DNA from: Eledone cirrhosa
Lineage: Eukaryota
Length of the DNA: 64,000 nt
Reading direction: 5' to 3'
Assembly (NCBI GenBank): GCA_964016885.1
Contig: OZ024765.1
Span: forward strand, 23,684,001 to 23,748,000
In this document: piece after piece, positions 321 through 40,100 of the stretch
Numbering within the stretch: position 1 is the stretch's first letter
Layout: each line of letters starts with the position of its first letter
Made by a program: the position numbers and the translations under genes
The notes under the pieces: generated by a model
What the model was told of the DNA's origin: nothing
Database searches by the model: none
What the model saw: the letters and a program-made list of their open reading frames with translations, nothing else

Positions 321-368
321 CTCTACGACTCCACAAGAAGTTATGGGATCTTTATCGTTTTTTATCTA

Positions 369-6659: not shown

Positions 6660-7170
6660 TATCTGCTTCTGTTATGTTACCTGGCTGACCTAGTTAGCAG
6701 TGGAGGTGGGTGTTCTCAAAGTACTGTAACCAGGGTAAGAACGGGATAGAAGAAGTTCAGGGTGCTACTACCATTCCTGGCTGCAAAATGTTTTTCCCTC
6801 AAAATAAAGGGCAGTCTGTATGAGGTGTTTATAAAATAGCAACAATACATGGTAGTGACCCTGGGAACTGTGTGGAGAGGACCTCTAAAGATTGGATAGA
6901 AATGAAGCTTGTATGCTCTGATGGATGTGTAATAGTAATATACATGAAGAGTAAAGTGTAAATAAACTGAGAATGAGAATATACAGTGTGCTGGTATGGA
7001 TATGTGATGTGTAGGCAGGCTGCTCAAAGTGGATGGAAGTTATGGAAGAGGAAGACCTAGGAGAGCTTGAGATGAGGTGATAAAAACTGACCTGACACCA
7101 TTGTACCTCTCAAAGGTGATGACACAGGATTGAAATCTCCGGCGTTGTACAGTACTGCAGAAGACCTGTA
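6660..7170 (+). mobile_element. Degenerate 3' fragment of RTE-clade LINE
   Basis: Nucleotide similarity to 10110-10670 and to the 19467-20189 ORF (SGGGCS..TVTRVRTG.KKFR.LLP ... GRGRPR..DEVIKTDL); contains stops and indels. Confidence 0.8.
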
Positions 7171-10500: not shown

Positions 10501-10730
10501 GATGGGTGAAGAAGTGCCAGGAATTGCCAGTTGAAGGAAGACGTGGTAGAGGTAGACCACGAAAAACATGGGCGGAGGTGGTGAGAACAGACCTCAGATC
10601 ATTGAAGCTCACGGTGGAGATGACGAGGGACCGTGACAAGTGGAGAGATGGTGTGCTGAATAAGACCCGTCCCACCCTTGCAAGCAGGGAAAAGCGGACG
10701 TAAAATGATGATGATGATGATGATGATGAT
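7510..10730 (+). mobile_element. Near full-length decayed RTE-clade LINE (APE endonuclease + RT + PHD-like finger + C-terminal domain, (GAT)n tail)
   Basis: ORF pieces 7663-8049 (ATLNVGTL..DVCCVQEVRW..IISAYAPQ), ~8050-8330 (RNEEGVRLLEFC..SQIDFLL), 8283-9365 (GKAAGPSGI..NYRGIKL), 9326-10048 (AFVDLEKAFDRV..GVHQGSVLSPLLF..LLYDDDL) and 10137-10703 (MLHGSETW..RRLRWYGHVMRM..RGRPRKTW), then an atgatgatg tail at 10704-10730. It has frameshifts, a deletion near 8045 and YADD changed to YDDD at 9689-9700. Confidence 0.95.
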
Positions 10731-12816: not shown

Positions 12817-13790
12817 TTAGCACTAATACTAACTACTATACTGTACATTGGATAAGGTAGTCCTTGATACATTATGTCTGATAGCCACTAATACTAACTA
12901 CTATACTGTACATTAGATAATGTAGTCCTATACTATATCTGATAGTCACTAATACTAACTACTCTACTATACATTAGATAATGTAGTCCTAGATACACTA
13001 TGTTTGATAGCCACTAATACTAACTACTGTACTGTACATTAGATAATGTAGTCCAGAGTACACTATGTCTGATAGCCACTAATACTAACTACTGTACAGT
13101 ACATTAGATAATGTAGTCCTAGATACACTATGTCTGATAGCTACTAATACTAACTACTGTACTGTACATTAGATAATGTAGTCCTAGATACACTATGTCT
13201 GATAGCCACTAATACTAACTACTGTACTGTACATTAGATAATGTAGTCCTAGATATACTATGTCTGATAGACACTAATACTAACTACAATACTGTATATT
13301 AAATAATGTAGTCCTAGATATACTATGTCTGATAGCCACTAATACTAACTACTGTACTGTACATTAGATAATGTAGTCCTAGATAAACTATGGTTGGTAG
13401 TTACTAGTACTAACTACTGTAGTGTACATTAGATAATGTAGTCCTAGATACACTATGTCTGATAGCCACTAATACTAACTACTATACTGTACATTAGATA
13501 ATGTAGTCCTAGATATACTATGTCTGATAGCCACTAATACTAACTACTGTACATTAGATAATGTAGTCCTAGATACACTATGTCTGATAGCCACTAATAC
13601 TAACTACTATACTGTACATTAGATAATGTAGTCCTAGATATACTATGTCTGATAGCCACTAATACTAACTACTGTACATTAGATAATGTAGTCCTAGATA
13701 CACTATGTCTGATAGCCACTAATACTAACTACTATACTGTACATTAGATAATGTAGTCCTAGATACACTATGTCTGATAGTCACTAGTAT
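12817..13790. repeat. 65-bp minisatellite, ~15 copies (some shorter variants)
   Basis: Unit tagccactaatactaactactgtactgtacattagataatgtagtcctagatacactatgtctga; aatac recurs at 13081, 13146 and 13211. Confidence 0.95.
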
Positions 13791-16460: not shown

Positions 16461-16582
16461 AAAGTGTCTTTCTAATCACAAGCTATTTCGGCACTTAAAG
16501 ACTTATATAAAAAAAAAAAAGGAAGAATTTTTTTTAAAGACAAAGCCACTGGAAAACAGTGTCAATATAGTGCTCATTAACA

Positions 16583-18578
16583 ATGCTGCCTAAAAAAACT
16601 TACAAAACTGGAGCAACAAAGAGGAGAGAAGCTAGACAAGCTGCCATGGAAGAATCCTCAAAGAAATGTCATCTAATCACAAGTTTTCTGAAAAGTCAAC
16701 AGTCTTCGTCAACAAGTAGTGACACATCCCAAAGCAACGTAACTGCCGGAATTTCCGGCGAGTCGGTCTGGTCAGATGAACTGGAGAAACAGAATAGCAC
16801 TGCAGAGTCGCGAGAACCTGACGTCAAAGATGCCTCAGGTCCATCGACTATCTCAACAACCGTCGTAGTCACTGAAGATATAGTTCCAACTGGGGATCCG
16901 AACTCAATAGAGGGAAAAAGGGCTGTATCGGAATCTGAAAATGAAAATGATTCAGAGGAAACTACATTGGCAAAACAAATCCCAGAGTATGAGCCAGTAG
17001 AATGCATGTTGAATTTACAAGAGGAGTATCCAAGCGACCCGAAAAATTTCGAGGGCAGACCATTGACGGCACCTCTAATTCGCGCCCTCATGGCCGTTGG
17101 TCCTTGTCAGCCAGGATTGAAAGATAATTTTGCTGATTTCCCTCTCGACTCGAACCACAGAAAATTCAACATCAGTTGGTAACAGAGAAAGTGTGCTGGA
17201 ATCCATAAAGTTGACCGACACTGGTTAGTATACTCTCCTGAATCCAACAGACTATATTGCTTTTGTTGTTGGCTGTTTGCTGATAAAAATGCCGAATCTT
17301 ACTCGAAGACTTGGGGTAATCCAGAGTGTGGGATGGCAAACTTCAAAAAGGGAATCGAAAAAATTGCCAAGCATGAGAAAAGTGCCATTCACATCAATGC
17401 ACAAAAGCAATACTTCATGACAAAATATCGTTTGGACGCAGATAAAACAGTGATCGATAACCTCATCCATGAAGAGAAGAAGCGAATTGAACGAAATCGC
17501 CAGATATTGAGGCAATTGCTTGATTGTACGTTATTTCTCGCAAAACAAGGCCTGGCCTTCAGAGGTCACAGGGAATATGCTGGACTTGGCGCCAAATCAG
17601 AAAATGAAGGAAACTTTATTGAATTGTTGAAATTGATGGCCAAGTATGATACTATCTTGGAAAGCCATTTATTCTCGCCTGGGCGCACTAAAAGACAGCC
17701 TATATACTTACGTCCAAAAGTACCAAACGAATTCATAGAATGCCTGGCAATTGAATGTACTCAACAAATAATCACGGAAGTGAAATCGGCAAAATACTAT
17801 TCAGTCATCGTCGATTCCACAATAGACATTTCGCATCAGGATCAATGCTCTGTGTCACTGCGATATGTATCGAAAAGTGGCCACGCTCAGGAGCATTTCC
17901 TGTCGTTTTGTGAACTAGAATCAGCAGCACTGATATCAGACGCTAAAAATCTCGCCGAGCAATGTCAAGTTGAACCAGAATTTACAACGGAAAAGAAAAA
18001 AGAAGCGTTTTCATGATGAAAATGCCAGTGACGAACCTCATGAGACGATGAGTCAGCATTTTAAATGGGACGTTTACTACTTAGATAGAATCATTAGTAG
18101 CTTTAACGAACGTTTTGCCGACTTGCACGATCTAGTGAAGGATTTTTCGTGCTTGATACCGGCGGACTTCGACGACAACGACACATGCAATAGAGAGAGA
18201 ATCGATAATCTTGCGAAATTCTACGCAGGTGACATCGAAAATGACACTATCTTCGACGAGTATTTATCATTCAAAGATTTTTACAAGGAAGTGTGTTTAG
18301 ATAAATCCATATCGAGTTCTGAGATCGTTCCGTTTATGATTTCTAATGACTTAGATAGAGCCTATCTGAACGTGTTTGCCTTATACAAAATGTTCATAAC
18401 TATTCCGGTTAGCTCGGCGCAGGCTGAGCGAACCTTCAGCAGGCTCAAACTGATAAAGAATTATTTGCATAGTACCATGAGTGAAGAGCGGTTGAATGCT
18501 CTGGCAATGATGTACATAGAGCGAGAACTGGCTGAAAAAATTATGTGTGAATATGTAAATGAATGTATGAAAAATTGA
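16583..18578 (+). pseudogene. hAT (Tip100/ZMYM1-like) transposase pseudogene: TTF-type zinc finger, DUF4371-like region, hATC dimerization domain
   Basis: Motifs RKFNISW* ... WLVYSPESNRLYCFCCWLF ... KHEKSAIH; FLAKQGLAFRGHRE..NEGNFIELL..YYSVIVDSTIDISHQDQ; TIPVSSAQAERTFSRLKLIKNYLHSTMSEERLNALAMMYIERE. Lesions: stop at 17180, frameshifts near 17330 and 18000, and a large central deletion near 17925. Confidence 0.9.
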
Positions 18579-20205: not shown

Positions 20206-21344
20206 GGTCGCTATTTCTGGGATGGCTGTTTCTTGCGGTATAAAGTAACGTCCAAATATTTTTCTCGATTCTTCTCTCCATTCGAATCCATTCTTTCAAT
20301 CACTGTTCTATGTCCTAATTTCACACTATATCATAAATATCATGTTATAGATAATTGTTTTAATAAGTTATGAGGGATACTGGTTTATATTTAGTGTAAG
20401 TAATTAAATTAACTGAGTTAATAAGATTATTTATATGTTTTTAATGTTTTAAATTAGGAAGATACTGAAAAACCCAGTTTTGTTTATTTATTAGTTAGTA
20501 TGAGACCATTTTGACGAAGATATAAATGTTGAAAGATATATTTAGGCAGAATTAGTTATTGGTTATAACTCTAATATTAAATAATTAAAAAATATAAAAA
20601 AATATAAAAATATTAAAAGTTCTGGAAAAATTAGAAAAAAATTTTTTTAACCTCAGAAGATACTCAAAAAACCATTTTAACAAAATAAAATACTTAAAAA
20701 GTACTTGAACTATTTAAAATGTTTAAAAATATTAAAAAATATTAAAAAATTTTAAATAATCTTTAAAAAGTAATTTTTTAAAGAAATAAATAATAATTTT
20801 TAAAAATAAGTAATTTTTAAATATATTAGATATTTTAGAAGTAAAATAAAAATGAGATATTTTAGAAGTAAACTAAAAAATGGTGTCAAGTCATGTCACC
20901 AATTTGACCACTTTGAAGGGTGCTTCGGGTCCCTTCAGTCTTGCCACTAGCATGACTACTTTACAGAGTGGGCTAGGGGCCTTCTGTCATGTCTACCTCA
21001 CAGAGTGGACTGGGTGTTTAGTTGTCATGTCATCAGCATGACTACCTTGCAGGGAGGGTTAGATGTTCTTTTGTCATATTACCTAACAGAGAGGACTTGG
21101 TGCTCTTTTGTCATGACACCTGCATGACCACCTTACAGGGTTGCCTGAGGGTTTAGCCATTTCAGCAGCATTGGAGGAGAGCATGTTAAGCTTTCCTTAC
21201 TTGTATACATGGGTTGGTCAAGAAAGGTGTATCAGATGTGAAAGTGGGGGTGGGGCTGTGTGTATGTAGAGTGGGGATTATAGAGGTAGGTCAGGGTGGT
21301 GTACTTAGTAGGTAAAGGGGTGGAGTGTTAAGATGTGGGGAGGA

Positions 21345-22040
21345 GGAAAATTGGAGCATACTTCAAACCACTAAGTGTTGTGTCAACCCGTGTACATGGG
21401 AATGCAGGTCTCCTGCAGTACTGTATAACGCCAAAGATTTCAATCCTGTGTCATCACCTTTGAGAGGTACAATGGTGTCAGGTCAGTTTTTACCTCCACA
21501 TCCCAAGCATTCCTAGGTCTTCCTCTTCCATCAATTTCAAGTGGTCAACCTTTTATACAGCATCTCTACCTTCATACACATCACATGTCCATACCACAGC
21601 AATCTCCTCTCCTGCATACTGTATCTTATCCCTCTCATGCCCAGGTTCTCTCTTAGATTATTTACACTTTCCCCTTCATGTATATTAATATTACACATCC
21701 ATCAGAGAATTCAAGTTTCATTTCTATCCAATCTTCTGAGGTCCTCACTGCAATGCAGCATTGCTGTTCATATGCACACATCAATTTGGTGAAACAACCT
21801 TTTGTAGCTAGCAGCAGTAGTAACACCCTAAACCTCTGCCATCTTGTTCTTACTCTTGTTACTGTACTTTCAGAACACCTACCTCCACTGCTTATTTGAT
21901 ACCCCAGGTAACAGAAACTGTCAACTGCTTCTATGGAACCCTTTAAATATTTGATAGAGCTTGTCTCCTAAACGTGATTGCTACTTACTTCTCCAGCGCA
22001 GTGAACCAATGTAAAACCTACGTTCTTAGCTAACTTACCA
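21345..22040 (-). mobile_element. Degenerate RTE LINE 3' fragment (paralog at ~30575-31320)
   Basis: Reverse complement resembles 6660-7170 and 19467-20189. Confidence 0.8.
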
Positions 22041-22145
22041 TGTATGTGTGACCATTGGTTTCTGAGTCCAGTTATGGCACCACTTTTTGTTAGGCGAGGC
22101 ACTTCCAAACAGACCCTTCATAAAGTATGCTGACAAATATATTTT

Positions 22146-22500
22146 GCAATCTAGGTGAGTTAATTAGAAGTGGAGGGGGCTGCTCTGAAAGATGTACAGC
22201 TAGAATAAGGATAGGATGGAAAAAGTTTAGAGAGCTACTGCAACAGTTGACCACAAAAGGTTTCTCTCTCTGGACAAAAGGACAACTGTATGACACATGT
22301 GGGTGATATGCAATGATGCATGGTAACGAAACAAGGGCTGTGACTGCAGAGGATATGTAGACTGGAGAGAAATGAAAGAACCATGCTTTGTAGGATATGT
22401 TGTGTAAGTGTGAGAGAAAGGGAGAGCTTGGACAAGTTCAAGAAGAAGCTGGGTTTAAGAATGAGCTGAAGTGGTGTGTAAGAGAGAAGACTGTGTTTGT
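22146..22500 (+). mobile_element. Degenerate RTE LINE fragment (longer paralog at 32338-32950)
   Basis: Matches 10120-10475 (GGGCSE..RIRIGWKKFRELL..LTTKGFSL). Confidence 0.85.
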
Positions 22501-22969
22501 ACAGACATAAAATGAAAGGAGAATTTCTTAGTAAAACAGGTTTATTCAAAATATTAACAACATTGATGGCACTATTTTAGGTGAGTGACATGGTTTTTAT
22601 CTAATTGTGTTGCATTAAGTAATCTTTATAAGAGAATGATTTACCACAGACATCACAGTGATATAGTTCCTCTCCTGTATATGTTAGTGTCTAATTAAAC
22701 CACAACATTTAGAGAAGGATTTATCACAGACATCACAGTGATATGGTTCCTCTCCTGTAGATGTTAGTGTCTAGTGAAGCCACAACATTTAGAAAATGAT
22801 TTACCAAATATATCAAAGTGATATGGCTTCCCAGCTGTATGTATATGTGTGTGTGTAGTTAATGTAACATTCAAAGAGAATGATTTCCCTAAGATGTTAC
22901 AATGATATGTATTTGTATTCTCATTAATTCACAAATTTGAGAGAATGATTTATCACTGATGTCAATGCG

Positions 22970-23824
<855 letters not shown>

Positions 23825-24474
23825 AATGATTTCTTCTTCAACAGAATATATAAATGTTTTCTTTGTAATATTTTTTATATTATATTTCTTATAAAATATT
23901 CTTCTATATTTCCCTCAACTGTGATTTCAGTTAATATCTGAAGATAATACAAACTTCTTTTTCATCCAAGTTTAGTTAAAATACAAAACCATCTCATAGT
24001 GAAGAAAATAAACTCAGTTCTGAGGAAATATTTTACAGTAATTGAACTATAGATTTATATAAGTTCTGTTTAGAAGGTTTTAGTTTTCAAATGATGATAA
24101 ATAGAGGTGATGTATCCAAGATTGAAAATAATAATTTATCCCACTGTCATCTGATATTCTGAAATAAGAAAGAAATAGTATGAGATAATAGAGAATACTT
24201 TAGAAGCAGAGATAGATTTAACAGTGGAAATGTTATATTTCTATATTGGTAAACTGTAGATATCAAGATTCTGTCCAGAGAAATTCTCTCCAATGTAAGC
24301 AGTGGTATTCCAGCATGCTCTATAAATTATATCCTTCTATCTCTTCAGAGGTCTGCTCTATGGCAGTTTAGCAAAAAATGCATTCTTACAGGACTTATAA
24401 GAAAGTAACAGTATGAGATAATAGAGAATACTTAAAATACAGAGATAGATTTAACAGTGGAAATTTTACATCTT

Positions 24475-24612
24475 CACCACATTTCCTAGCGTCGAAGACG
24501 TTACTTTTTCCCTAATATAAGTCTCAAAAATCTAACATACGTCACGGAGGCCGAAGGTTGCTTCTTATTTTTTTTCAAAAATTGGTCGTCATTGGCGCCA
24601 GTAAGTACGGTA
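24475..24612. mobile_element. Short Tc1/pogo-type MITE relic (paralog ~35697-35827)
   Basis: Imperfect TIRs caccacatttcctagcgtcgaagacg and gtcgtcattggcgccagtaagtacggta, resembling TACCGTA-type termini. Confidence 0.5.
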
Positions 24613-24869
24613 CATTGGTAAACTATAGAAATATACCTGTGTCAGATTTATTTATTCATATAAACCAGCTACACCATCAGTATAGCGGGATCATCTAGTA
24701 CAGGGCCCCGAAACTGTGGTAACCTCATTAGATGGGTTTGGAACAGCTGACTGGCTACCCCTCCTCACAGTGGGTGCCACCCAGTACCAGGCCCCAAAAT
24801 TATAGTTCCACTGTGAGATGGGTTCAGCACAGCCAACTGGCCTGTCCCCCCTCATAACAGAGCCATCCA

Positions 24870-25055
24870 GTTCTACACTGTAAACATGGTTGGTGTTAGG
24901 AAGGGAATCCAGCTGTAAAATACCCGACCAAATTTACAGACCTCACCTGAGCAAGGTGTGACACATGGCCAAACCTGGCCAGACTTGCCTCCTGGCGTGG
25001 ATGACCTGTCTAACCCATGCAAGAATGGAAAAATGGACGCTAAATGGTGAAGATA
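24870..25055 (+). mobile_element. Short RTE-related non-autonomous retroposon (related copies ~36207-36390, ~36490-36665, ~29840-30000 minus)
   Basis: ggttggtgttaggaagggaatccagctg (LINE 5'-like) joined within ~120 bp to gtctaacccatgcaagaatggaaaaatggacg (LINE 3'-like) and a gat-rich tail. Confidence 0.7.
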
Positions 25056-25464
25056 CCTACATATATATATATATATCCCAGCCACACAGGACACGTAAAA
25101 GACATGGCAAAAAGTACCCACCCCACACTGGAAAGTGATGTAGGTTTCATGGAAACAAGCACCCAGCCCATACTGCAAAGTGGACGTGAAAAAGACACAG
25201 CAAAAAGCACTCGGCCCACACTGTAAAGTAGACATGTTTTTGATGATGATGGTGATGATGATATATAATAAAATGTTGTAGTTTGCTTGAAGCATTCTAT
25301 ATAATATATAACGTTGAAAGAGATAGAAGGTTAAACAATGCAAAATGGACTGTATGATGAGGTAAGGAAAAGTAAAAGTTACCTGGTAATCTTTGGTTTT
25401 TTTTTTGTTGTTCTTTTATCTGTCCAATATTTTCGGACCTAAAAGTCCTTTCTTCAGGGTTTAA

Positions 25465-26147
25465 CCCTTTAGAATTTACATTACTCTATATATACTATTA
25501 TATTTCCATGGTAAAGTCTTTACCTCACATAATATTTACATTACTCTATATATACTATTATATTTCCCTGGTAATGTCTTTATCTCACATAACATTTACA
25601 TTACTCTATATATACTATTATATTTCCATGGTAAAGTCTTTATCTCACATAACATTTACATTCCTCTATATATACTATTGTATTTCCATGGTAAAGTCTT
25701 TACCTCACATAACATTTACATTACTCTATATATACTATTGTATTTCCATGGTAAAGTCTTTACCTCACATAACATTTACATTACTCTATATATACTATTA
25801 TATTTCCATGGTAAAGTCTTTACCTCACATAACATTTACATTACTCTATATATACTATTATATTTCCATGGTAAAGTCTTTATCTCACATAACATTTACA
25901 TTACTCTATATATACTATTATATGGTAATGTCTTTACCTCACATAACATTTACATTACTCTATATATACTATTATATTTCCATGGTAATGTCTTTACCTC
26001 ACATAATATCGAATGTATGAGGTTTTGATATTATTTATATTGAGAACAAAACTTTAACATCAGTAAGAGTGGCCAGTTACAGCCAGTTTAAAAGAGAAAA
26101 ATGGGACAGAATTCTGGTCAGTTACAGCTAGTTTAAATGTTAAAGGG
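25465..26147. mobile_element. piggyBac-like MITE with TTAA target duplication
   Basis: TTAA|ccctttagaattta ... taaatgttaaaggg|TTAA. Confidence 0.8.
25474..26008. repeat. 60-bp minisatellite, ~9 copies, inside the MITE
   Basis: Unit atttacattactctatatatactattatatttccatggtaaagtctttacctcacataac; successive 60-nt lines are nearly identical. Confidence 0.97.
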
Positions 26148-26247
26148 TTAAGCAACTTTCAGTGGATAATGTTCCAATTTCCTCTCTTTGGGATTAAATT
26201 TTGATTTTGATTAAAATTATTTCTAAGTTGTTTTCAGACATTTTAAA

Positions 26248-26395
26248 AAATTGATGGAAGATGTGAAGTAGGAAGACCTGGGATGAGGTGATAATAGCTG
26301 ACCTGACACAATTGATGAAGCTAGGAAGACCTAGTTTGAGGTGATAAAAGCTGACTTCACACAATTGCACTTCTCAAAGATAATGACACAGGATA
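26248..26395 (+). mobile_element. RTE LINE 3' fragment holding two copies of the 61-bp satellite monomer (satellite seed)
   Basis: aattgatggaagatgtgaagtaggaagacctgggatgaggtgataatagctgacctgacac, a second partial copy, then the LINE continuation caattgcacttctcaaagataatgacacaggat (compare 7098-7130). Confidence 0.88.
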
Positions 26396-26635
26396 TATAC
26401 ACACATTACTATATATACACCTAACATATCGAAGACCCCCCGTCAGTCACTAAGGACCATGTGATTTGCAACTAGACAGTTCCCCTCCAAGGCACAAGTC
26501 TGGTTGTTTGAGGAAGACCAGCAGTGACCCAAATATAACAGTCTACCCTCTCCACGCCACCCATGTTGTCCAAGGGAAAGGTAATGGCTGATACAGCTTG
26601 GTACCAGTGACATCACTACATATATATACACTATA

Positions 26636-26966
26636 CCAGGTGTGTCAGAAAAGTTCCAGGACTGATGTCACAAAAGATTTATTTCAAACCCAAACTTCAC
26701 ACTAAGATGAGTCATGGATCTTCGAGTATGACCCGGAGGTGACCCGTTTTGAAGACATGGACGTCATCAAAAAGGCCGTGACGACGGAACTGCGGAGGGT
26801 CCCGGAAGAATCCTTCCAGGAGTGCATGCAAGCTTGGCAGAAAAGTATGGATAAGTGCATTAGATTCCAGGGGGATTACTTTCAAGGAGAAAACTCTTAG
26901 TGTGAAGTTTGGGTTTGAAATAAAACTTTTGTGACATCAGTCCTGGAACTTTTCTGACCCACCTCA
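26636..26966 (+). mobile_element. Internally deleted mariner element (MITE-like) with ~70-bp TIRs and TA flanks
   Basis: aggtgtgtcagaaaagttccaggactgatgtcacaaaag..tttatttcaaacccaaacttcacactaaga is inverted at 26896-26966. The interior encodes DESWIFEYDPE and RFEDMDVIKKAVTTEL..FQECMQAWQKSMDKCIRFQGDYFQG*. Confidence 0.9.
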
Positions 26967-27099
26967 TATATATATTATATATACACTGTCTACATTATAT
27001 AGGTTAACTTTGCCTTTCATCCTTACGGGGTCGATAAAATAAAGTACCAGTAATATACTGGGTAATTTCTGGCCTTGTGCCAATAGTACAAACAATTAT

Positions 27100-27905
27100 G
27101 TAGACATGCTAGAGTGAAAGGAAATTAACATATGCTGTGTGCAAGAGACTAGGTGGAGAGGAGTGTCCGCTAGAGGGCTTGTAGGCAAAAGTCAGTGTTA
27201 TAAATTTTTCTGGGGGGTGTAGGTATACTATTAGCTGACAAATGAGTAGATAAGGTAATCTCAGTGAACAGGGTGAACGCAAGAATCATTAAACTCAGCC
27301 TAGTCCTGAATAAAACAATTGCTACAATCATATCAGCTTACACACCCCAATTAGGGTGCCAGATGAACTTATGAATAAGTATTATGAGTCCTTAATGCAC
27401 ACTACTGCCATAACAAACAACAATGACTTCATAAACATTGCAGGGGACTTTAACCGTGACAGCTTCTATAAAGTCCATGGAGGTTACGGGTTTGGCACAA
27501 GAAATGAAGAAGGCTCTAGGCTTCTAGAATTCTGTGACGCCAATGACATGTCGATATGTATCACAAACTTCCCAAAACCCGACAACCATCTGATCACCTA
27601 TGGATCAGGGGAGCATTCTAGTCAGATAGATTTTATCCTTATCAGAGGACAAGATAGATGTACAGTTGTAAACACAAAAGCCTTCCTTGTGAGGAATGTA
27701 CCCCCCAACATAGCTTAGTTGTCAGTGACCTCATTGTCAGAACTAGAAGAACTTGGAAACAGAAGGCGGAAGCAGAAAGATCCCTCAGCCAGTTACTCGA
27801 TGCCTATGACAGTAAAGAAAAACAGATAGAGACATTCAATGTAGAAGAGCACTGGGAGTTTCTAAAAAATAACTTAATAAAGGTGACGGACAACACTTAT
27901 GGTTG
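27100..27905 (+). mobile_element. Decayed RTE LINE endonuclease-region fragment
   Basis: CCVQETRWRG..IISAYTPQ..IAGDFN..HGGYGFGTRNEEGSRLLEFC..SQIDFIL..EECTPQHSLVVSD. Confidence 0.88.
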
Positions 27906-28029
27906 TAAGCAATGGCCGATACAGCTTGGCACCAGTGACATGACAACATACATATACACTATGTACAGTATATATACACTAAATATATATTATATATACA
28001 TTGTGTACTGTATATATATGTCCAACAGA

Positions 28030-28207
28030 AAGGCTATGGCCGATACAGCTTGGCACTAGTGACATCACAACTCATTTCTACAACTGAGTAAACTGGAGCA
28101 ACGTCAAATAGAGTGTCTTGCACAAGGACACAACACATCACACCGTCCGAGAATCGAACTCACCACCTTTTAATTGTAAGCCCAATCCTCTAACCACTGA
28201 GCCATGA
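28030..28207 (-). mobile_element. tRNA-derived SINE head; probable remainder at ~26420-26617
   Basis: Minus strand tggctcagtggttagagg (A-box-like) and gtgagttcgattctc (B-box-like). atggc.gatacagcttgg.ac.agtgacat is shared at 26584, 27912 and 28036. Confidence 0.7.
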
Positions 28208-28249
28208 TACATTCCAGAACCAACCGTGATATAGAGAGACCATAAAGAC

Positions 28250-28792
28250 AACCGTTGTTTCAATAGTTTCAGCCTTAAAATACCTCTCCTACATGCTTTA
28301 AGTACATATAAACTTATTAAAACACACTTTTGTATTTAAACACCAAAAACAGCCAGTAACGATCTTATAGAAACTACCACCAACCATCGTACCACTAGTT
28401 ACCAATGAGGACCATTGCCAGCCACGGTAGCCACTTGGTAATACACTGCACATCTCCCGTCAATCTATGAAGGGTTTCTAGTAGATTAGAGCAAAACACA
28501 ATCAGTAAAACAGTAATGGAATGAAAAATATAAACATTTGTTCATAATTAAAGCCTTAAGATGTCCCTTCCTTACGATATACACTTTAATAACATTGAAA
28601 CTTATTTAATAAGTTTAAAATTTAAACTCTTTTTATTCAGACGTACCGCGATAAGAAACTAGATATGTTTTAACGAATAATCTGCGATGTGGCGAGGATT
28701 ACCGCGATAGAAAATTAGATATGTTCCAAAGAAATATCCGCGATGTAACGGGACCGCGAAAAGTGAACCGCGATATAGCGGGGGATTACTGT
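28250..28792. mobile_element. Tigger/pogo-like DNA transposon terminal fragment
   Basis: Ends gaaccgcgatatagcgggggattactg|ta (reverse complement ta|cagtaatcccccgctatatcgcggtt) with reiterated ccgcgat subterminal motifs; left boundary uncertain. Confidence 0.6.
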
Positions 28793-31379
28793 ATATATAC
28801 ACACACAATATACATTTATCTATATACACTCATAACATTTATTTCGATGTTTGACATTAAAATGTTGACTGAGGGTGACAACTGTTTCTTGTTTGAGGTT
28901 GTTCCAGTGGTTGAAATATAGACGGAGGTAATTTAAATAATAAAGACAGTCATGATAACAATATATTTTATATCACATGTAACACTGGAAACTGGTTAAT
29001 TACTGGATCGTTGTAGGGGTCACATAATTATATTATTTACACACATTAATATAGACATTAAGTATATCTTTGTCAACTTACCTCCTTCACATATAATCAA
29101 TGTGTTGTGTTGTTAGTTTTTACTAAACAACCAAAGAAATAATCTCTGTTATCAAATAAGAAGTTTCAATGTTATCAGCTTTATTTCACGACATTAACGT
29201 TGGTGTATCTTCTTCATCTTTAGTCATAAATTGATATCTTGTCAGAATGAAGTAGTGAGGCTGACTTTATATCTTTAGCTACAGATTTGATAGGAAATAT
29301 ATATATATTAGGTTGATATGGGGTCTAAAATATATATACTGTCTATAAATGACTGATAGCAGATGTCCTGGTGAAATAGTAGTTTTACTACTACAGATTG
29401 TAATGGAACTCTTAGTAGACACAATTGTAAAGTAAGAATAGATATGACAGTGTAAGACTGATGTCGGGGAAAGAAAATTGTGTATATATATATATATATA
29501 TATATAATTGTTACACAAGATACAATTAGATTAATTAAAGTTATAATGAAGACAGCAAGTACTCGGTGTCGTTGGGAATGTATCATCTCTCTTACCGGTG
29601 TCATACGTTAAAAGTCCCTGAAATAAATTAATACCTTCAGACACAGTTCCAATCGTTTTCAATTAATTGTAAATCAGAAAGATTGTGAGTTCAATTCTCG
29701 GACCGTATGGGCAAAACAGGGTCAGCCGACCGGACACTGCCCACAACAGGACAACCCATCTAACCCATGCTAGCGTGGAAGAACTGACGTAAAACGGTGA
29801 TGATGATGATATATAAACGTGAATATTCATATATTATACATCATCACAGTTTAAGTTCCATTTTACAAGCTAGCATGGGTCGGACGAGTTGTCCTGTTGT
29901 GTGAAAACTTAGATCAAATGACCATGTCTGGCTCATGCAAGAAACATTTCTGGCTTGATTTCTACGGCTGGATGCCCTTCCTAACTCTAACCACATTTAC
30001 AGGGGGGGACTTGGCATTTATTGTTGTGTTGCTAACATAACCAACCTGCAGGGGGGACTGGGTGCTTTTTGTTGTCTCACCATCACGACCACCACCTAAC
30101 AGAGCAGACAGGGTGCTCTTTGTCATGTCACAATTTGACTACATTGAAGGGTGCTTCGGGTCCCTTCAATCTTTCCACTAGCATGACCACTTTACAGAGT
30201 GGGCTAGGGGCCTCCTGTCATGTCTAACTCACAGGGTGAACTGGGTGCTTAGTTGTCATGTCACCAGCATGACTACCTTGCAGGGAGGGTTAGGTGCTCT
30301 TTTGTCATATTACCTAACAGAGAGAACTCGGTACTCTTTTGTCATGACACCTGCATGACCACCTTACAGGGTTGCCTGAGGGTTTAGCCATTTCAGCAGC
30401 ATTGGAGGAGAGCATGTTAAGCTTTCCTTACTTGTATACATGGGTTGGTCAAGAAAGGTGTATCAGATGTGAAAGTGGGGGTGGGGCTGTGTGTATGTAG
30501 AGTGGGGATTATAGAGGTAGGTCAGGGTGGTGTACTTAGTAGGTAAAGGGGTGGAGTGTTAAGATGTGGGGAGGAGGAAAATTGGAGCATACTTCAAACC
30601 ACTAAATGTTGTGTCAACCTGTGTACATGGGAATGCAGGTCTCCTGCAGTACTGTATAACGCCTGAGATTTCAATCCTGTGTCATCACCTTTGAGAGGTA
30701 CAATGGTGTCGGGTCAGTTTTTACCTCCACATCCCAAGCTTTCCTAGGTCTTCCTCTTCCATCAATTTCAAGCAGTCAACCTTTTATACAGCATCTCTAC
30801 CTTCATACACATCACATGTCCATACCACAGCAATCTACTCTCCTGCATACTGTATCTTATCCCTCTCATGCCCAGGTTCTCTATCTGTTTATTTACACTT
30901 GTTCTTCATGTATATAATATTACACATCCATTGGAGAAATCAAGCTTCATTTCTATCCAATCTTCGGAGGTCCTCTGCACACACCGCCCAGATCTCACTG
31001 CAATGGAGCATTGCTGTTCATATGCACACATCAATTTGATGAAACAACCTTTTGTAGCTAGCAGCAGTGTTAGCACCCTAAACCTTTGCCATCTTGTTCT
31101 TACTCTGGTTACTGTACTTTCAGAACACCTACCTCCATTGCTAATTTGGTTACCCAGGTAACAGAAACTGTCAACTGTTTCTATGGAACCCTTTTAATAT
31201 TTGATAGAGCTTGTCTCCTAAAAGCGATTGGTTCTTACTGCTAGAATGCAATGATCCCACGTAAAACCTACGTTCTTAGTTAACTCACCTTGTATCTCAC
31301 TAAATCTCTTGTGGACCCATAGTCTCTTTAGAGTAAATAATGTTTCATACACATAACATGTGTATGAAACATAAGTAAC

Positions 31380-32310
31380 TATGTCTTAAATACAACACTG
31401 CTTGTAGATTTCTAACACTCTTGCAGTAGCTTTACGTTCAGCATCTTGCGATCGTCTAATTGCAGCCTCCACTGACGATTCCTTTCCTTTTCCCTCTCTC
31501 AGCTTTCACCGTTTTTCGACCAATGGTGGATCTCTTCCTTGGAGGCCTTATCTAAGGAAAGAGGACGTAAGACACTAAGATGAGTAAAATATTAACCAAC
31601 AATTATTTAAGTTTTGCACATGTGACGTGATTGTCACAGTGATCCAGAGACAGCCTTCATCCACCTAGGGGCCACATTAGACAAAATATGGAAAATGTTA
31701 AGAGTCTACAACACTTCTGGGAACATAACCCATGTTTGTTCCAAATTTGAAGAGAATCAGTTGCAAACTGTTGAAGTAATGTAGGTACAGACATACACAC
31801 ATCCTCAGTTTTATATGTATATATATATGGATGGATGTATGTTTGTGTGTGTGTATGTGGACTTTGTAACTTGCCCAGACAAACAACACAACACACACAG
31901 TCACAGTACGTCTTGTGTGAAAGAGAGAGAGGGAATGGAGAACAATCAAGAACACACATTGTCGTCTGCTTTGGTTGAAATTTCTATATGTATATTTCTA
32001 GTAAGTTGTTGCCTCGTTTTGGAGGACTGAGTTGTGGGAGGAGGAAGGGTTGTAGTGGGAGAGAGGGTTTAACATACAGTAGTAGCATCTCCTCTTCCCC
32101 CTCTCTCACTGAAACGTCTTCTCTTTCCTCCTCCATTGTAAAGATGTCCACAGGGATTCCATTTATTGAAATCTAATTAGCCAGTCCTGTTTCTGAATAT
32201 TAGCTTAACATGTGTGTAAAGTTTCATCAGGATCTGATCACTGGTGTAGGCACCAACTGGTTATACACAGATACACAGACAGACAGAAATTGACATTTAT
32301 ATAGTAGATT
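31380..32310 (-). mobile_element. Helitron-like 5' terminal fragments
   Basis: Minus strand a|tctactatataaatgtcaatttctgtctgtctgtg at 32308, and atacatataaaactgaggatgtgtatgtctg..ttcaaatttgg at ~31820. PPRKRSTIGRKT-like peptide at ~31545. Confidence 0.5.
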
Positions 32311-32337
32311 ATACACACAGAAGTGGTTGATAGCTTT

Positions 32338-32950
32338 TACAATCTAGTTGACTTAATTAGCAGTGGAGGAGGCTGCTCTGAAAGATGAATAGCTAGAATA
32401 AGGATAGGATGGAAAAAGTTTAGAGAGCTACTGCAACAGTTGACCACAAAAGGTTTCTCTCTCTGTACAAAAGGATGACTGTATGACACATGTGGGTGAT
32501 GTACAATGATGCATGGTAACGAAACAAGGGCTGTGACTGCAGAGGTTATGTAGACTGAAGAGAAATGCAACAACCATGTTTTGTAGGATATGTTATGTAA
32601 GTGTGAGAAAGGGAGAGCATGGAAAAGTTAAAGAAGAGCTGGGTTTAAGAGTGACCTGAAGTGGTGTGTAAGAGAGAAGACTGTGTTTGTATGGACATGG
32701 GATGCACATGGATAATGACCACTGGGTGAAGGAGTGCCAGGAAATCCCAGTAGAAGGAAGCCATAGTAGAGGTAGACCAAGAAAGACCTGGACAGAGGCT
32801 GTGTGAACTGACTTCAAATAACTGACTCTCACAGAGAAGATGACAAAGGAACACGACAAGTTGAAAGATGCCATGTTGAGAAGGACCTGTCCAACCAAGC
32901 AAGCATGGAAAAACGGACATAAAAACAGTGATGATGTTGATGAAGATGAC
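32338..32950 (+). mobile_element. RTE LINE 3' fragment with (GAT)n tail
   Basis: Aligns by eye to 10120-10730, including the tail. Confidence 0.88.
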
Positions 32951-33595
32951 GTACATATACACACATACATACACAAATAAATCAAACACAGATATGCACA
33001 TACTTATATACAAACATATACATGGACACACATTTCTACACACATACATTCACATATATATAACGTATGTAAATTCTGAACGATACAGTTTTGTCAGCAC
33101 AACTCTTGGTTACAACTTCTACAAATAAAATGAAAGGAGAAGAATTTATTAGTAAAACAGTTTTATTCAAAATATTAACAAAATTGATGGCACTATTTTG
33201 GGTGAGTGACATCGTTTTTATCTTGTCTGATTGTGTTGCATTAAGTAATCTTTACAAAAGAAGGATTTATCACAGACATCATAGTGATATAGTTCCTCTC
33301 CTGTATATGTTAGTGTCTAATTAAACCACAACATTTAGAGAATGATTTATCACAGACATCACAGTGATGTAGTTCCTCTCCTGTAGATGTTAGTGTCTAG
33401 TGAAGCCACAACATTTAGAGAATGATGTACGAAATATATCAAAGTGATATGGCTTCCCAGCTGTATGTATATGTTTGTGTGTAGTTAATGTAACATTCAA
33501 AGAGAATGATATCTCTCAGATGTCACAAAGATATGTATTTGTATTCTCATTAATTCACAAATTTGAGAGAATGATATATCACTGATGTCAATGCG

Positions 33596-35038
33596 TTATG
33601 ATTTCTCTTCTGCGTGTATAAATTTGTGAATAGTCAGGCTACTTTTCCCAGAGAATGATATACCACAGATATCACAGTGATATGGCTTATCTCCTGTATG
33701 TGTACGTATATGTCTAGTTAAGTGACTAATTTGATAGAATGATTTATCACAGATATCACAGTGATATGGCTTGTCTCCTGTATGTATACGTTTGTGGCTA
33801 GTTAAGGTACAACTTTCAGAGAATGATTTACCACAGATATCACAGTGATATGGCTTCTCTCCTGTATGTGTACGTTTATGTGTAGTTAGGTTACTACTTA
33901 CAGAGAATGATTTACCACAGATATCACAGTGGTATGGCTTGTCTCCTGTATGTATACGTTTATGTGTAGTTAAGTGACTACTTCTAGAGAATGATATACC
34001 ACAAATATCACAGTGATATGGCTTGTCTCCTGTATGTATACGTTTGTGGCTAGTTAAGGTACTACTTTCAGAGAATGACTTACCACAGATCTCACAGTGA
34101 TATGGCTTGTGCCCTGTATGTATACGTTTATGCTTAGTTAAGCTACCACTTTGAGAGAATGCCATACCACAGATATCACAGTGATATGGCTTGTCCCCTG
34201 TATGTATACGTTTATGCTTAATTAAGCTACCACTTTGAGAGAATGCCATACCACAGATATCACAGTGGTATGGCTTGTCTCTTGTATGTATACCTTTGTG
34301 GCTAGTTAAGGTACTACTTTCAGAGAATGATATACGACAGATATCACAGTGATACGGCTTGTCTCCTGTATGGGTACGTTTGTGGCTTGTTAAGTTACCA
34401 CTTTGAGAGAATGATATACCACAGATATCACAGTGATATGGCCTCTCTCCTGTATGGGTTCGTTTGTGAGTAGTTAACTGACAACTAACAGAGAATGATA
34501 TACCACAGATATCACAGTGATATGGCCTCTCTCCTGTATGGGTACGTTTGTGAGTAGTTAAATGACAACTAATAGAGAATGATTTACCACAGATATCGCA
34601 GTAATATGGTTTCTCTCCTGTATGGGTTCGTTTGTGAGAAGTTAAGGTACTACTTTGAGAGAATGATTTACCACAGATATCACAGTGAAATGGTTTCTCA
34701 CCTGTATGGGTTCGTTTGTGAGAAGTTAAGGTACTATTATCAGAGAATGATTTACTACAGATATCACAGTGATGTGGCTTATCTCCTGCATGTATACGCA
34801 TGTGAGTAGTTAAGGTACTACGATTATGGAATGATTTACCACAGATATCACAGTGATATGGCTTCTCTCCTGTATGTATATGCTTGTGAGTAGTTAAGGT
34901 ATTATGTTTATTGAATGATTTACCACAGACATCACAGTGATATGGCTTTTCTTCTCTAACCTTCGTCATTTCACCAGGAATACTAAACACTTTAGATTGT
35001 GTTTCCCATTTAATCTCCTTTGTCAATTTATTTTCCAT
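33596..35038 (-). CDS. Tandem C2H2 zinc-finger protein, 16 fingers, ~480 aa, single coding exon
   Basis: 16 intact CxxC-x12-HxxxH units with TG(E/D)(K/R)P linkers. First in-frame ATG is at 35038 (MENKL), matching the paralog's ATG. An acceptor-like tttctttcttatttcag lies at ~35390-35406 on the minus strand. Confidence 0.9.
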
Positions 35039-36873
35039 AATGATTTCTTCTTCAACAGAATATACAAATGTTTTACTTGTAATATTTCTTATATTATATT
35101 TCTCATAAAATATTTCTTCTTCTATATTTCCCTCAAATGTGATTTCAGTTAATATCTGAAGATAATACAAACTTCTTTTTCATCCAAGTTTAGTTAAAAC
35201 ACAAAACCATCTCATTGTGATGAAAATAACTTAGTTCTGAAGAAATATTTCATAGTATTTCGACTACAAATTTATATAAACAGTGTTATATAAGTTTTGT
35301 TAAAAAAGTTTTAGTCTTCAAATGATGATAAATAGAGGTGTTGTATCCGAGATTGAAAATAATAATTTATCCCAATGTCATCTGGTATTCTGAAATAAGA
35401 AAGAAACAGTATGAGATAATAGAGAATACTTTAGAAGTACAGATAGACTTAACAATGGAAATTTTATATTTCTATATTGGTAAACTGTAGATATCAACTT
35501 TCCTGTCCAGAGCAATTCTCTCCAAAGTAAGCAATAGTATTCCAGCATGCTATATAAATTATATCCTTCTATCGCTTCAGAGGTCTGCTCTATGGCAGTG
35601 TAGTGAAAAATTCATTCTTATAGGACTTATAAGAAAGTAACAGTATGAGATAATAGAGAATACTTAAAATACAGAAACAGTGGAAATATTACATTCTTAC
35701 CATCGTCGAAGACGTTACTTTTTCCCTAATATAAGTCTCAAAAATCTACCATACGTACTGGAGCCGAAGGTTGTTTATTATTTTTTTTCAAAAATATTGA
35801 CGACTTCGGCACCAGTAAATACGGTACATTGGTAAACTGTAGAAATATACCTGTGATGTTTATTTATATAAACCAAGGCTATATATATGTCAAACTAGTA
35901 CAGGGTGTCATCTAGTACAGGGCCCCAAAACTGTGGTAACCTTGTGAGATGGGTTTGGCATGGCCGACTGGTTACCCTCCCCATAGTGGCATAGCCAACT
36001 GGCCAGCCCTTCTTGTAACTGTACCATCCAGTACCAGTCCCCATAACTATGGTAACCTCACGAAAAGGGTTTGGCCCATCTGGTTGGCCACCTCTCCCTC
36101 ATAATGGTGCCACCCAGTACCAGGGCCCAAAATTATACTTCCACTGTGAGATGGGTTCAGTGCAGCCAACTGGCCTGTCCCTCCTCATAACAGAGCCATC
36201 CAGTCCCACACTGTAAACATGGTTCATGTTAGGAAGGGAATCCAGCTGTAAAATACCCGACCAAATTTACAGACCTCGCCTGAGCAAGGTGTGACACATG
36301 GCCAACCCTGGCCAGACTTGCCTCCTGGCGTGGATGACCCGTCTAACCCATGCAAGAATGGAAAAATGGACGTTAAATGATGATGATATATACATACATA
36401 TATATCTCACCCACACTGGACATGTAAAAGACACAGCAAAAAGCACCCAGCCCACACTGCAAAGTGGGCATGTAGGTGTCTTTGGCACCCAGTCCACACT
36501 GTCAATGTGGTTAGCGTTAGGAAGGGCATCCAGCCGAAGAAAGCTAGCCAGAAACATCCCTATATGAGTGAGATATGGTCACCTGAACCAATTTGCCTCT
36601 AAATAGGACCCGTCTAACCCATGCTAGCGTGGAAGATGGACGTTAATTGATGATGATGGTGATGATATATAATAAAATGTAGTTTGCTTGAAGCATTATA
36701 TATAAAATATAATGTTGAAAGAGATAGAAGGCTAAACAATACAAAATGGACTGTAAGATGAGGTAACGAAAAGTAAAAGTTACCTGGTAATCTTTGTTTT
36801 TTTTTTTTTGTTGTTGTTGTTCTTTCATGTGTCCAATATTTTGGGACCTAAAAGTCCTTTCTTCAGGGTTTAA

Positions 36874-37068
36874 CCCTTTAGCATTTATATTACTCTATAT
36901 ATACTATTATATTTTCACAGTAAAGTCTTTACCTCACATAATATCGAATCTATGAGATTTTGATATTATTTATATTGAGAATACCTTAATATCAGTAAGA
37001 GTAGCCAGTTACCGCTGGTTTGAACAGAAAAAGGGGACAGAATTCTGGTCGGTTTAAATGTTAAAGAG
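36874..37068. mobile_element. piggyBac-like MITE, paralog of 25465-26147 without the minisatellite expansion
   Basis: TTAA|ccctttagcattta ... taaatgttaaagag|TTAA. Confidence 0.78.
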
Positions 37069-37103
37069 TTAATCAACTTTCAGTGGATTACGTTCCAATT
37101 TCC

Positions 37104-40100
37104 TGGAAGCTATGAAGTAGGAAGACCTGTGATGAGGTGATAAAAGCTGACCCCAGACAATTGATGGAAGCTATGAAGTAGGAAGACCTGGGATGAGGTG
37201 ATAAAAGCTGACCTCACACAATTGATGGAAGCTATGAAGTAGGAAGACCTGGGATGAGGTGATAAAAGCTGACCTCCCACAATTGATGGAAGCTATGAAG
37301 TAGGAAGACCTGGGATGAGGTGATAAAAGCTGACCTCACGATTGATGGAAGTTATGAAGTAGGAAGATCTAGGATGAGGTGATAAAAGCTGACCTCAGAC
37401 AATTGATAGAAGCTATGAAGTAGGAAGAACTGAGATGAGGTGATAAAAGCTGACCTCACAACTGATGGAAGCTATGAAGTAGGAAGATCTAGGATGAGGT
37501 GATAAAAGCTGACCTCACGATTGATGGAAGTTATGAAGTAGGAAGATCTAGGATGAGGTGATAAAAACTGACCTCAGACAATTTATAGAAGCTATGAAGT
37601 AGGAAGACCTGGGATGAGGTGATAAAAGCTGACCTCAGACAATTGATGGAAGCTATGAAGTAGGAAGACCTGGGATGAGGTGATAAAAGCTGACCTCAGA
37701 CAATTGATGGAAGCTATGAAGTAGGAAGACCTGGGATGAGGTGATAAAAGCTGACCTCACACAACTGATGGAAGCTATGGAGTAGGAAGACCTGTGATGA
37801 GGTGATAAAAGCTGACCTCACACAACTGATAGAAGCTATGAAGTAGGAAGATCTGGGATGAGGTGATAAAAGCTGACCTCACACAATTGATCGAAGCTAT
37901 GAAGTAGGAAGACCTGGGATGAGGTGATAAAAGCTGACCTCAGACAATTGATCGAAGCTATGAAGTAGGAAGACCTGGGATGAGGTAATAAAAGCTGACC
38001 TCAGACAATTGATCGAAGCTATGAAGTAGGAAGACCTGGGATGAGGTAATAAAAGCTGACCTCAGACAATTGATCGAAGCTATGAAGTAGGAAGACCTGG
38101 GATGAGGTAATAAAAGCTGACCTCACACAATTGATCGAAGCTATGAAGTAGGAAGACCTGGGATGAGGTGATAAAAGCTGACCTCAGACAATTGATCGAA
38201 GCTATGAAGTAGGAAGACCTGGGATGAGGTAATAAAAGCTGACCTCAGACAATTGATCGAAGCTATGAAGTAGGAAGACCTGGGATGAGGTAATAAAAGC
38301 TGACCTCACACAATTGATCGAAGCTATGAAGTAGGAAGACCTGGGATGAGGTGATAAAAGCTGACCTCAGACAATTGATCGAAGCTATGAAGTAGGAAGA
38401 CCTGGGATGAGGTAATAAAAGCTGACCTCAGACAATTGATCGAAGCTATGAAGTAGGAAGACCTGGGATGAGGTAATAAAAGCTGACCTCAGACAATTGA
38501 TCGAAGCTATGAAGTAGGAAGACCTGGGATGAGGTGATAAAAGCTGACCTCAGACAATTGATCGAAGCTATGAAGTAGGAAGACCTGGGATGAGGTGATA
38601 AAAGCTGACCTCAGACAATTGATCGAAGCTATGAAGTAGGAAGACCTGGGATGAGGTGATAAAAGTTGACCTCACACAATTGATGGAAGCTATGAAGTAG
38701 GAAGACCTAGTTTGAGGTGATAAAAGCTGACCTCAGACAATTGATAGAAGCTATGAAGTAGGAAGACCTGGGATGAGGTGATAAAAGCTGACCTCACACA
38801 ACTGATGGAAGCTATGAAGTAGGAAGATCTATCATGAGGTGATAAAAGCTGACCTTACACAATTGATGGAAGCTATGAAGTAGGAAGACCTGGGATGAGG
38901 TGATAAAAGCTGACCTTACACAATTGATGGAAGCTATGGAGTAGGAAGACCTAGTTTGAGGTGATAAAAGCTGACCTCACACAATTGATGGAAGCTATGA
39001 AGCAGGAAGACCTGGGATGAGGTGATAAAAGCTGACCTCACATAATTGATGGAAGCTATGAAGTAGGAAGACCTGGGATGAGGTGATAAAAGCTGACCTC
39101 ACACAACTGATGGAAGCTATGAAGTAGGAAGATCTAGTTTGAGGTGATAAAAGCTCACCTCACACAATTGATGGAAGCTATGAAGTAGGAAGATCTAGGA
39201 TGAGGTGATAAAAGCTGACCTCAGATATTATTTATATTGAGAATACCTTAATATCAGTAAGAGTGGCTTGAACAGAAAAAGGGGACAGAATTCTGGTCGG
39301 TTTAAATGTTAAAGAGTTAATCAACTTTCAGTGGATTACGTTCCAATTTCCTGGAAGCTATACAGTAGGAAGACCTGGGATGAGGTGATAAAAGCTGACC
39401 TGACACAATTGATGGAAGCTATGAAGTAGGAAGACCTGGGATGAGGTGATAAAAGCTGACCTCACACAATTGATGGAAGCTATGGAGTAGGAAGACCTGG
39501 GATGAGGTGATAAAAGCTGAGCTCACACAACTGATGGAAGCTATGAAGTAGGAAGATCTAGGATGTGATAAAAGCTGACCTCAGACAATTGATGGAAGCT
39601 ATGAAGTAGGAAGACATAGTTTGAGGTGATAAAAGCTGGCCTCAGACAATTGATGGAAGCTATGAAGTAGGAAGACCTGGGATGAGGTGATAAAATCTGG
39701 CCTCACACAACTGATGGAAGCTATGAAGTAGGAAGACATAGTTTGAGGTGATAAAAGCTGACCTCAGACAATTGATGGAAGCTATGCCGTAGGAAGACCT
39801 GGGATGAGGTGATAAAAGCTGACCTCCCACAATTGATGGAAGCTATGAAGTAGGAAGATCTAGGATGAGGTGATAAAAGCTGACCTCACACAATTGATGG
39901 AAGCTATGAAGTAGGAAGATCTATCATGAGGTGATAAAAGCTGACCTCAGACAATTGATTTGAAGCTATGAAGTAGGAAGACCTGGGATGAGGTGATAAA
40001 AGCTGACCTCACACAATTGATGGAAGCTATGAAGTAGGAAGACCTGGGATGAGGTGATAAAAGCAGAGCTCCCACAATTGATGGAAGCTATGAAGTAGGA

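Follow-up and report, generated by a model that had tools for sequence, protein, structure and literature searches.

A two-monomer LINE-derived repeat and a 61-bp satellite array at paralogous sites of a segmental duplication in Eledone cirrhosa

Several satellites are described as derivatives of LINEs, among them the common cetacean satellite (L1 3' end), chicken HinfI (CR1 ORF2/3' UTR), Phodopus PROsat and the seal satellite Pvc20 (L1 ORF2) (PMC9659126). For the birth of minisatellites, the Haber-Louis model, with duplication at direct repeats of 5-10 bp, and the Taylor-Breden model are available, and human tandem repeats derived from transposable elements have been described (PMC3389668). 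For the Drosophila elements hobo and R1, a two-step origin of arrays is described, in which a tandem dimer forms and unequal exchange then expands it, with eventual contraction (PMC5932611), and tandem arrays internal to MITEs are represented by Xstir and miDNA4 of Xenopus (PMC12628747). The octopus RTE element RTE-2_OV has an endonuclease, a reverse transcriptase and a zinc finger in one long ORF (PMC9115989), and the main text of a repeat study of Octopus vulgaris contains no occurrence of the word "satellite" (PMC13282606). In listings and abstracts of the openly accessible literature, we found no report of an RTE-derived octopus satellite or of a paralogous seed of one; a repeat library may already contain the monomer. 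It can seldom be decided whether a satellite is new or left over from an older library, a point that PMC8822648 gives as its main shortcoming.

The window analysed here is the whole stretch of 64,000 nucleotides from E. cirrhosa (contig OZ024765.1, positions 23,684,001 to 23,748,000). It contains two copies of a tandem segmental duplication, both delimited by collinear blastn matches: copy A at 20890-30121 (+), its right edge being inferred from the start of copy B, and copy B, which reaches from 30122 to 37103 (+), where a large array begins. Collinearity extends over 20890-26367 versus 30122-37285. Across seven non-repeat segments of the flanks, the 3807 aligned sites contain 285 substitutions as well as 39 gaps, corresponding to an A-B divergence of 7.5% (CI 6.7-8.4%). 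Copy B harbors an intact C2H2 zinc-finger ORF of 527 aa with ~15.5 fingers (33596-35179, minus strand), and the array lies ~1.9 kb upstream of it. The corresponding exon of copy A (22940-23914, minus strand; open frame 23282-23914) has two in-frame stops and ~9.5 fingers. Downstream of the zinc-finger exons, 80-bp tandem units (22631-22831, 33259-33450) resemble the 84-bp finger unit and are probably decayed fingers. Units of 50-65 bp have commonly expanded in tandem within the window, further arrays comprising 56 bp x91 (367-5461, 4.8% pairwise) and 65 bp x15 (12821-13786). Overlapping ORFs at 16571-18578 (+) resemble what we take to be a hAT-type transposase, and visual inspection shows long inverted ends on an element at ~26640-26965, presumably a mariner-like MITE.

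The left flanks of the two sites are homologous, yet not identical in structure. Copy A carries a TTAA-ended MITE (25461-26151) with 23-nt inverted ends (25461-25483 and 26129-26151). No inverted-end pair passed in the stretch 36850-37110 of copy B, the sequence of which is nevertheless homologous. Inside the MITE, a 60-bp unit is present nine times in copy A (25474-26006, ~250 bp upstream of the dimer described below) and once in copy B (~36883-36942). As the units in copy A differ by only 3.9% pairwise (eight of the nine, one with a 6-bp deletion being dropped) versus 9.8% from the unit of copy B, they have likely grown after the duplication. Copy A carries, in other words, an expansion that is reciprocal to the array of copy B, with a different unit and in the other copy. 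It was part of the original prediction that the dimer of copy A and the array of copy B stand behind the same flank. The flanks are not identical, though: 72 bp (26183-26254, +) lie between the shared flank and the first monomer in copy A only; according to the alignment of the junction they are deleted in copy B and in every spacer copy of its array. Twelve public sequence runs share words with the region, each below half of the words, and the contigs of four of them (X1, X2, X3 and X7) were aligned to 26010-26640 at 85% likeness. Out of 14,124 pieces, 846 loose ends, 41 joints and 71 variant rows, the contig results cover 32, 24, 15 and 40, respectively. Since contigs of two runs with differing organism labels, X1 piece 1 (26148-26236) and X7 piece 26 (26131-26243), bridge the B cut point in the contiguous 72-bp form, the loss in copy B is likely derived, and copy A likely retains the ancestral left junction as far as these sequences tell.

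At the site of copy A, TRF identified a 53-bp repeat with 2.0 copies (26264-26367). The first monomer, A1 (26251-26311, +), has 61 bp and differs at four positions from the array majority and at three from the closest array monomers. The second, A2 (26312-26364, +), has 53 bp, with a 1-bp and a 7-bp deletion compared to the majority, and is one substitution away from the array monomers at 38924, 41113 and 43302. The word AATTG is found at 26249, 26310 and 26363. Copy A had been predicted to consist of only two monomers that then continue into the LINE; the two monomers are present at 26251-26364, but the continuation is merely ~30 bp long. This LINE tail (26365-26395) can be aligned to five single-unit LINE copies in the window, and beyond it lie unrelated repeat pieces. 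That A2 already carries a variant which recurs in the big array proved correct, as its tagttt core of three linked bases is present in 59 of the 421 array monomers and the cctagtttgagg form of the surrounding 15-mer in 22 of 421. The 15-mer agacctagtttgagg itself occurs a single time on the plus strand of bases 1-37100, at 26327, and nowhere on the minus strand of the whole window. The A1 allele ctgacac is also found in the leading monomer behind all 11 internal flank copies of the array, and is missing from the very first array monomer (37100). Over the 114 bp of A1 and A2 combined, four substitutions are private (3.5%, CI 1.0-8.7%), about half of the A-B flank divergence. At position 26261 the base of copy A can be regarded as derived, since the base of the array accounts for 146,682 of the total depth of 148,289 in X7 and for 1,573 of 1,850 in X1. 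Two further alleles shared between copy A and the array, ttcacac (7 monomers) and aatagc (3 monomers), were dropped as evidence: the array already contains 58 of the 183 possible single variants and 24 of the 61 transitions, so this sharing may be due to chance.

The monomer originates from the end of a LINE. An RTE-like LINE ORF 3'-end fragment encloses the dimer (26237-26395, +, with an approximate 5' edge) according to blastn and tblastn with LINE copies in the window, and two X1 contigs over the flank end at 26236 among the matches listed. Its motif reads KIDG..RKTWDEVI.ADL.QLH.SK.MT.D, and the 61-bp unit translates, across a frameshift, into the end of the LINE ORF (two-sequence tblastn search of the monomer region against in-window LINE, E 4e-7 to 7e-5), so that the unit is homologous to part of a transposable element. 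Among 44 proteins homologous to the LINE end, 38 contain a GRPRKTW-like motif, P0008 having it at an unrelated place; one of the 44, labelled Octopus bimaculoides, is 71% identical over 32% of the query. Judging by the C-terminal motif, we assume that the source LINE belongs to the RTE clade. The un-duplicated state is represented by single-unit LINE copies at 7037-7130 (+), aligned with the LINE tail over 7048-7130, and at 21537-21443, 30768-30674, 19586-19516 and 32780-32850 (blastn/tblastn). Compared to these copies the monomer misses ~10 bp, at a place at which a pair of similar GGAAGACC-like words stands in the LINE. The window also harbors a near-complete LINE relative (7648-10703, +), in which the domain scan detected the endonuclease (Exo_endo_phos, E 1.3e-5), the reverse transcriptase (RVT_1, E 3e-22) and a PHD-like finger (PHD, E 3e-5), the three kinds of domain that RTE-2_OV carries in one long ORF, here broken into four frames; their order agrees with that of the octopus RTE (PMC9115989). 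A function for the monomer was dropped, as it has stops in every frame.

In copy B, TRF identified a 61-bp array with 442.9 copies that extends from 37104 to 64000. This satellite (+) comprises at least 421 monomers of 84 types, arranged head-to-tail over 26.9 kb, and runs off the window end. The big satellite array that had been predicted is thus real, but it is no plain run of monomers, because 11 internal copies of the left flank split it into 12 higher-order units with 35, 36, 34, 39, 53, 32, 32, 28, 32, 53, 32 and at least 15 monomers, respectively. The first internal spacer (39224-39352, +) has ~129 bp and is a copy of the flank 36962-37104 minus 14 bp; the other flank copies start at 41535, 43724, 46215, 49559, 51626, 53685, 55509, 57568, 60912 and 62979 (+). 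All spacers are nearly identical, each heads one of the 11 internal units (39224-63107), and they include the 3' end of the MITE and have a 2-bp GA microhomology at the junction. As the internal units each begin with a copy of the left flank, the higher-order step presumably came after ~30-35 monomers existed. The order of monomer types is common to the 12 units, and exact repeats of 3.4-6.5 kb contrast with a monomer divergence of 8.1%, as is typical for higher-order repeats, with the qualification that these units also hold a non-monomer spacer and vary between 28 and 53 monomers. The longest exact repeat (46148-52647 = 57501-64000) has 6,500 bp and extends to the window end, and two more have 3,409 and 3,355 bp; by their sequence, these would be either very recent duplications or an assembly error. 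The mean pairwise distance between monomers is 8.1% (410 full monomers, the 11 unit-ending monomers left out), with 6.6% in unit 1 and 8.1% in unit 2, and the distance to the majority sequence, A-shared alleles excluded, is 4.1% (3.8-4.3% by unit). A search for the exit of the array into the LINE tail retrieved only that of copy A itself at 26362, as the array continues to base 64000. Such an exit could not separate growth in copy B from shrinkage in copy A, because both predict it.

Among the pieces listed for the four runs, no contig spans the dimer. Junctions between monomers are present in X7 (share 0.36), with loose ends at 26249 and 26317 among the matches listed, and one X7 contig (depth 727) holds a complete second monomer of a type missing from the window. 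The same kind of tandem junction is found in a contig of X2, which bears another organism label, at a depth of 2.6. For X1 (share 0.17), none of the 24 of 846 loose ends listed is a tandem junction, and the listed ends lead from one unit into the LINE. The depth at 26252-26273 is 6,528 in X1 versus 208,793 in X7, with similar depths of the MITE, and the satellite looks absent or rare in X1 from these contigs. X7 contigs with the 72-bp-intact junction have a summed depth of 1,727-3,083 (26237-26246) versus 165 at the right junction (26406), summed depth being no copy number, and X7 piece 27 bridges the intact junction with 14 differences from copy A. This may hint at an amplification of flank-plus-monomer units that kept the 72 bp, outside the lineage with the deletion of copy B and at odds with an expansion of copy B alone, or may else be due to numerous short paralogues. 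Over 26164-26250 the summed depth of X7 is ~10-20x that of X1 at a similar MITE depth, possibly owing to other arrays or paralogues. The high-depth contigs of X7 at 26430-26530 were rejected as an amplified right flank, as the depth is only 165 at 26406 and the stretch is a separate repeat. X3 (share 0.07) covers 6 of 29 bins, all of them common repeats, and has no bearing as evidence. The skip of the 72 bp as in copy B is absent among the 15 of 41 joints listed, which proves nothing. A metagenome scan with a 42-base monomer pattern gave 0 loci, and one match to a 20-base junction pattern (locus L001) was rejected as chance because unrelated sequence stands on both sides.

It is likely from these sequences that the tandem state, with at least two monomers, is older than the segmental duplication, since a linked three-base variant common to A2 and the array is unlikely to recur, and since ctgacac heads all 11 internal units and the private load of copy A fits the age of the duplication. 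In this respect the original prediction of a dimer that predates the duplication is upheld by the shared tagttt, the positional ctgacac and the private load of 3.5%. Its further claim, that only copy B expanded from an ancestor of exactly two monomers, is tentative at best: the diversity of the array (8.1%) is as deep as the divergence of the flanks (7.5%), and therefore growth of the array should have begun about when the duplication happened. Seed simulations that start from a dimer were run with the flank mutation rate assumed, for the seed model alone and with 300 runs per setting. The observed diversity without a fixed change was matched in 32-38% of runs when an immediate burst at the duplication was simulated, in 18% with gradual growth from the start and no turnover, in 0-4% with turnover, and in at most 1.7% when growth started half-way. 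As the models with a half-way start and those with gradual growth and turnover rarely fit, a seed would have had to persist as a dimer until it had acquired 3-5 differences and then to grow at once; these models speak against a dimer that waited and took off late. An early take-off in copy B and a contraction in copy A both fit the data. An ancestor with two to a few monomers appears reasonably probable to us, one with exactly two falls somewhat short of an even chance, and that copy A is a pristine seed is a tentative reading which we would sooner doubt than adopt.

The strongest alternative, which we consider less probable, is that an array of tens of monomers existed before the duplication and that a single deletion or unequal exchange left only the first and the last of them in copy A, the dimer then being a remnant. 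This would explain why the monomer diversity is as deep as the duplication and why the nested alleles tgggat > taggat > tagttt/tatcat are all found in copy B, whereas the intermediate class (column-30 A without TT; 103 of 421 monomers, 0 reciprocals) is missing from copy A. However, a seed gives both at non-trivial rates: in simulations with unequal exchange, the flank rate assumed and 1000 runs per setting, the intermediate class arose again in 14-42% of those runs that kept tagttt at a frequency of 5-50%, which weakens the argument that taggat proves three or more ancestral monomers. A contraction would also agree with the apparent lack of a derived fixed change in the B majority at sites where copy A differs, with an A-type junction that looks multi-copy in X7, and with shrinkage towards one unit as the expected fate of neutral arrays (PMC5932611). 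Moreover, A2 has two indels within ~12 bp at its start, by the A1/A2 junction, compared to an expectation of ~0.6 per 114 bp at the flank rate, and this pair could be the scar of an array collapse. On the other hand, X1 shows no tandem junction among its listed loose ends, and the reciprocal 60-bp case demonstrates that growth in one copy after the duplication does happen here. Far less probable is an assembly artefact, by which part of the array length and the top-level repeats would be spurious and the size of copy B overstated; the exact multi-kb repeats would fit, but the 84 monomer types with distinct unit orders speak against it, as do the tandem junctions that independent X7 and X2 contigs contain, and such an error would touch only the array size and leave the A-versus-B contrast unaffected. 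Least probable of all is ectopic gene conversion, by which copy A, with a single unit or a simple dimer beforehand, would have gained the tagttt monomer from the array, which is only 10.8 kb away in direct orientation and has three monomers one substitution from A2, since the private load of A1 and A2 is as expected since the duplication, the 8-bp shortening of A2 is found in 0 of 421 array monomers, and the 72 bp missing from copy B would demand an old and short tract.

We therefore return to growth in copy B from a short tandem, and regard it with moderate confidence as the probable history that an AATTG-bounded 61-bp LINE piece was doubled before the duplication, whereupon copy A stayed near the short state and copy B grew in stages. 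The start would be a decayed LINE fragment with one unit, the state seen in the five in-window copies, and loss of one of the two adjacent GGAAGACC-like repeats, as the alignment suggests, would have led to the 61-bp form. Tandem doubling at AATTG by slippage or unequal exchange, followed by the tagttt variant, would then have preceded the tandem duplication of ~9 kb with the zinc-finger gene that is seen in the window. Copy B would have lost the 72 bp and grown, probably early, to ~30-35 monomers; the growth itself is evident from the array. Duplication of flank plus monomers at the GA microhomology would have generated the higher-order units of 1.8-3.3 kb that are observed, and the multi-kb duplications visible in the array would be the latest step. 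Unequal crossing-over may thereby have enlarged copy B to at least 421 monomers, with copy A staying at or near the short state. It is most likely that the growth of the array is neutral drift without a function.

The locus is of value as a clean example rather than as new biology, with nothing that points to a function. The question of new versus leftover becomes testable at one locus through a paralogous copy that has unique flanks and a clock of 7.5% divergence, and the flank copy in each higher-order unit ties the array to its place of origin. As the zinc-finger ORF of copy B is intact and its paralogue in copy A has stops, a hypothetical effect of the array on expression could be compared between the copies. 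It would go further, and is rather improbable, to suppose that a lineage-specific octopus satellite family was born here, with copy A as the true unexpanded seed. If true, one stretch of 45 kb would hold the single unit, the dimer, a 30-mer array, a flank-tagged higher-order repeat and multi-kb repeats, along with the reciprocal expansion of another unit in the other copy, the spacer would be a birthplace tag on arrays elsewhere in the genome, and a dated, internally controlled test would be at hand of why one of two identical seeds expands.

Satellites derived from transposable elements are already well known, and the present locus is a tidy new case with a mechanism of known kind. Like the LINE-derived satellites of PMC9659126, it goes back to an internal or 3' part of a non-LTR retrotransposon that became arranged in tandem; in contrast to those described there, the source is RTE-like, the unit has only 61 bp, and single-unit, two-unit, array and higher-order states occur at one locus with unique flanks. 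The 60-bp x9 expansion inside the MITE of copy A matches the arrays of Xstir and miDNA4, whereas the 61-bp satellite is not MITE-internal and contains the MITE 3' end in its spacer only (PMC12628747). As described for minisatellite birth, the unit would have arisen within the remnant of a transposable element, and the AATTG words at its ends may be the direct repeat at which it was duplicated; with 5 bp, AATTG stands at the lower limit of the 5-10 bp of the Haber-Louis model and is a common word in AT-rich DNA. Unlike minisatellites, the array has grown to at least 26.9 kb and recruited its flank into the higher-order unit (PMC3389668). The two-stage model of a dimer and subsequent expansion resembles that for hobo and R1 of Drosophila (PMC5932611). 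There, however, whole elements inserted twice with target-site duplications, the double-insertion dimer of McGurk and Barbash, whereas here the unit is an internal 61-bp ORF piece that was duplicated within a dead fragment.
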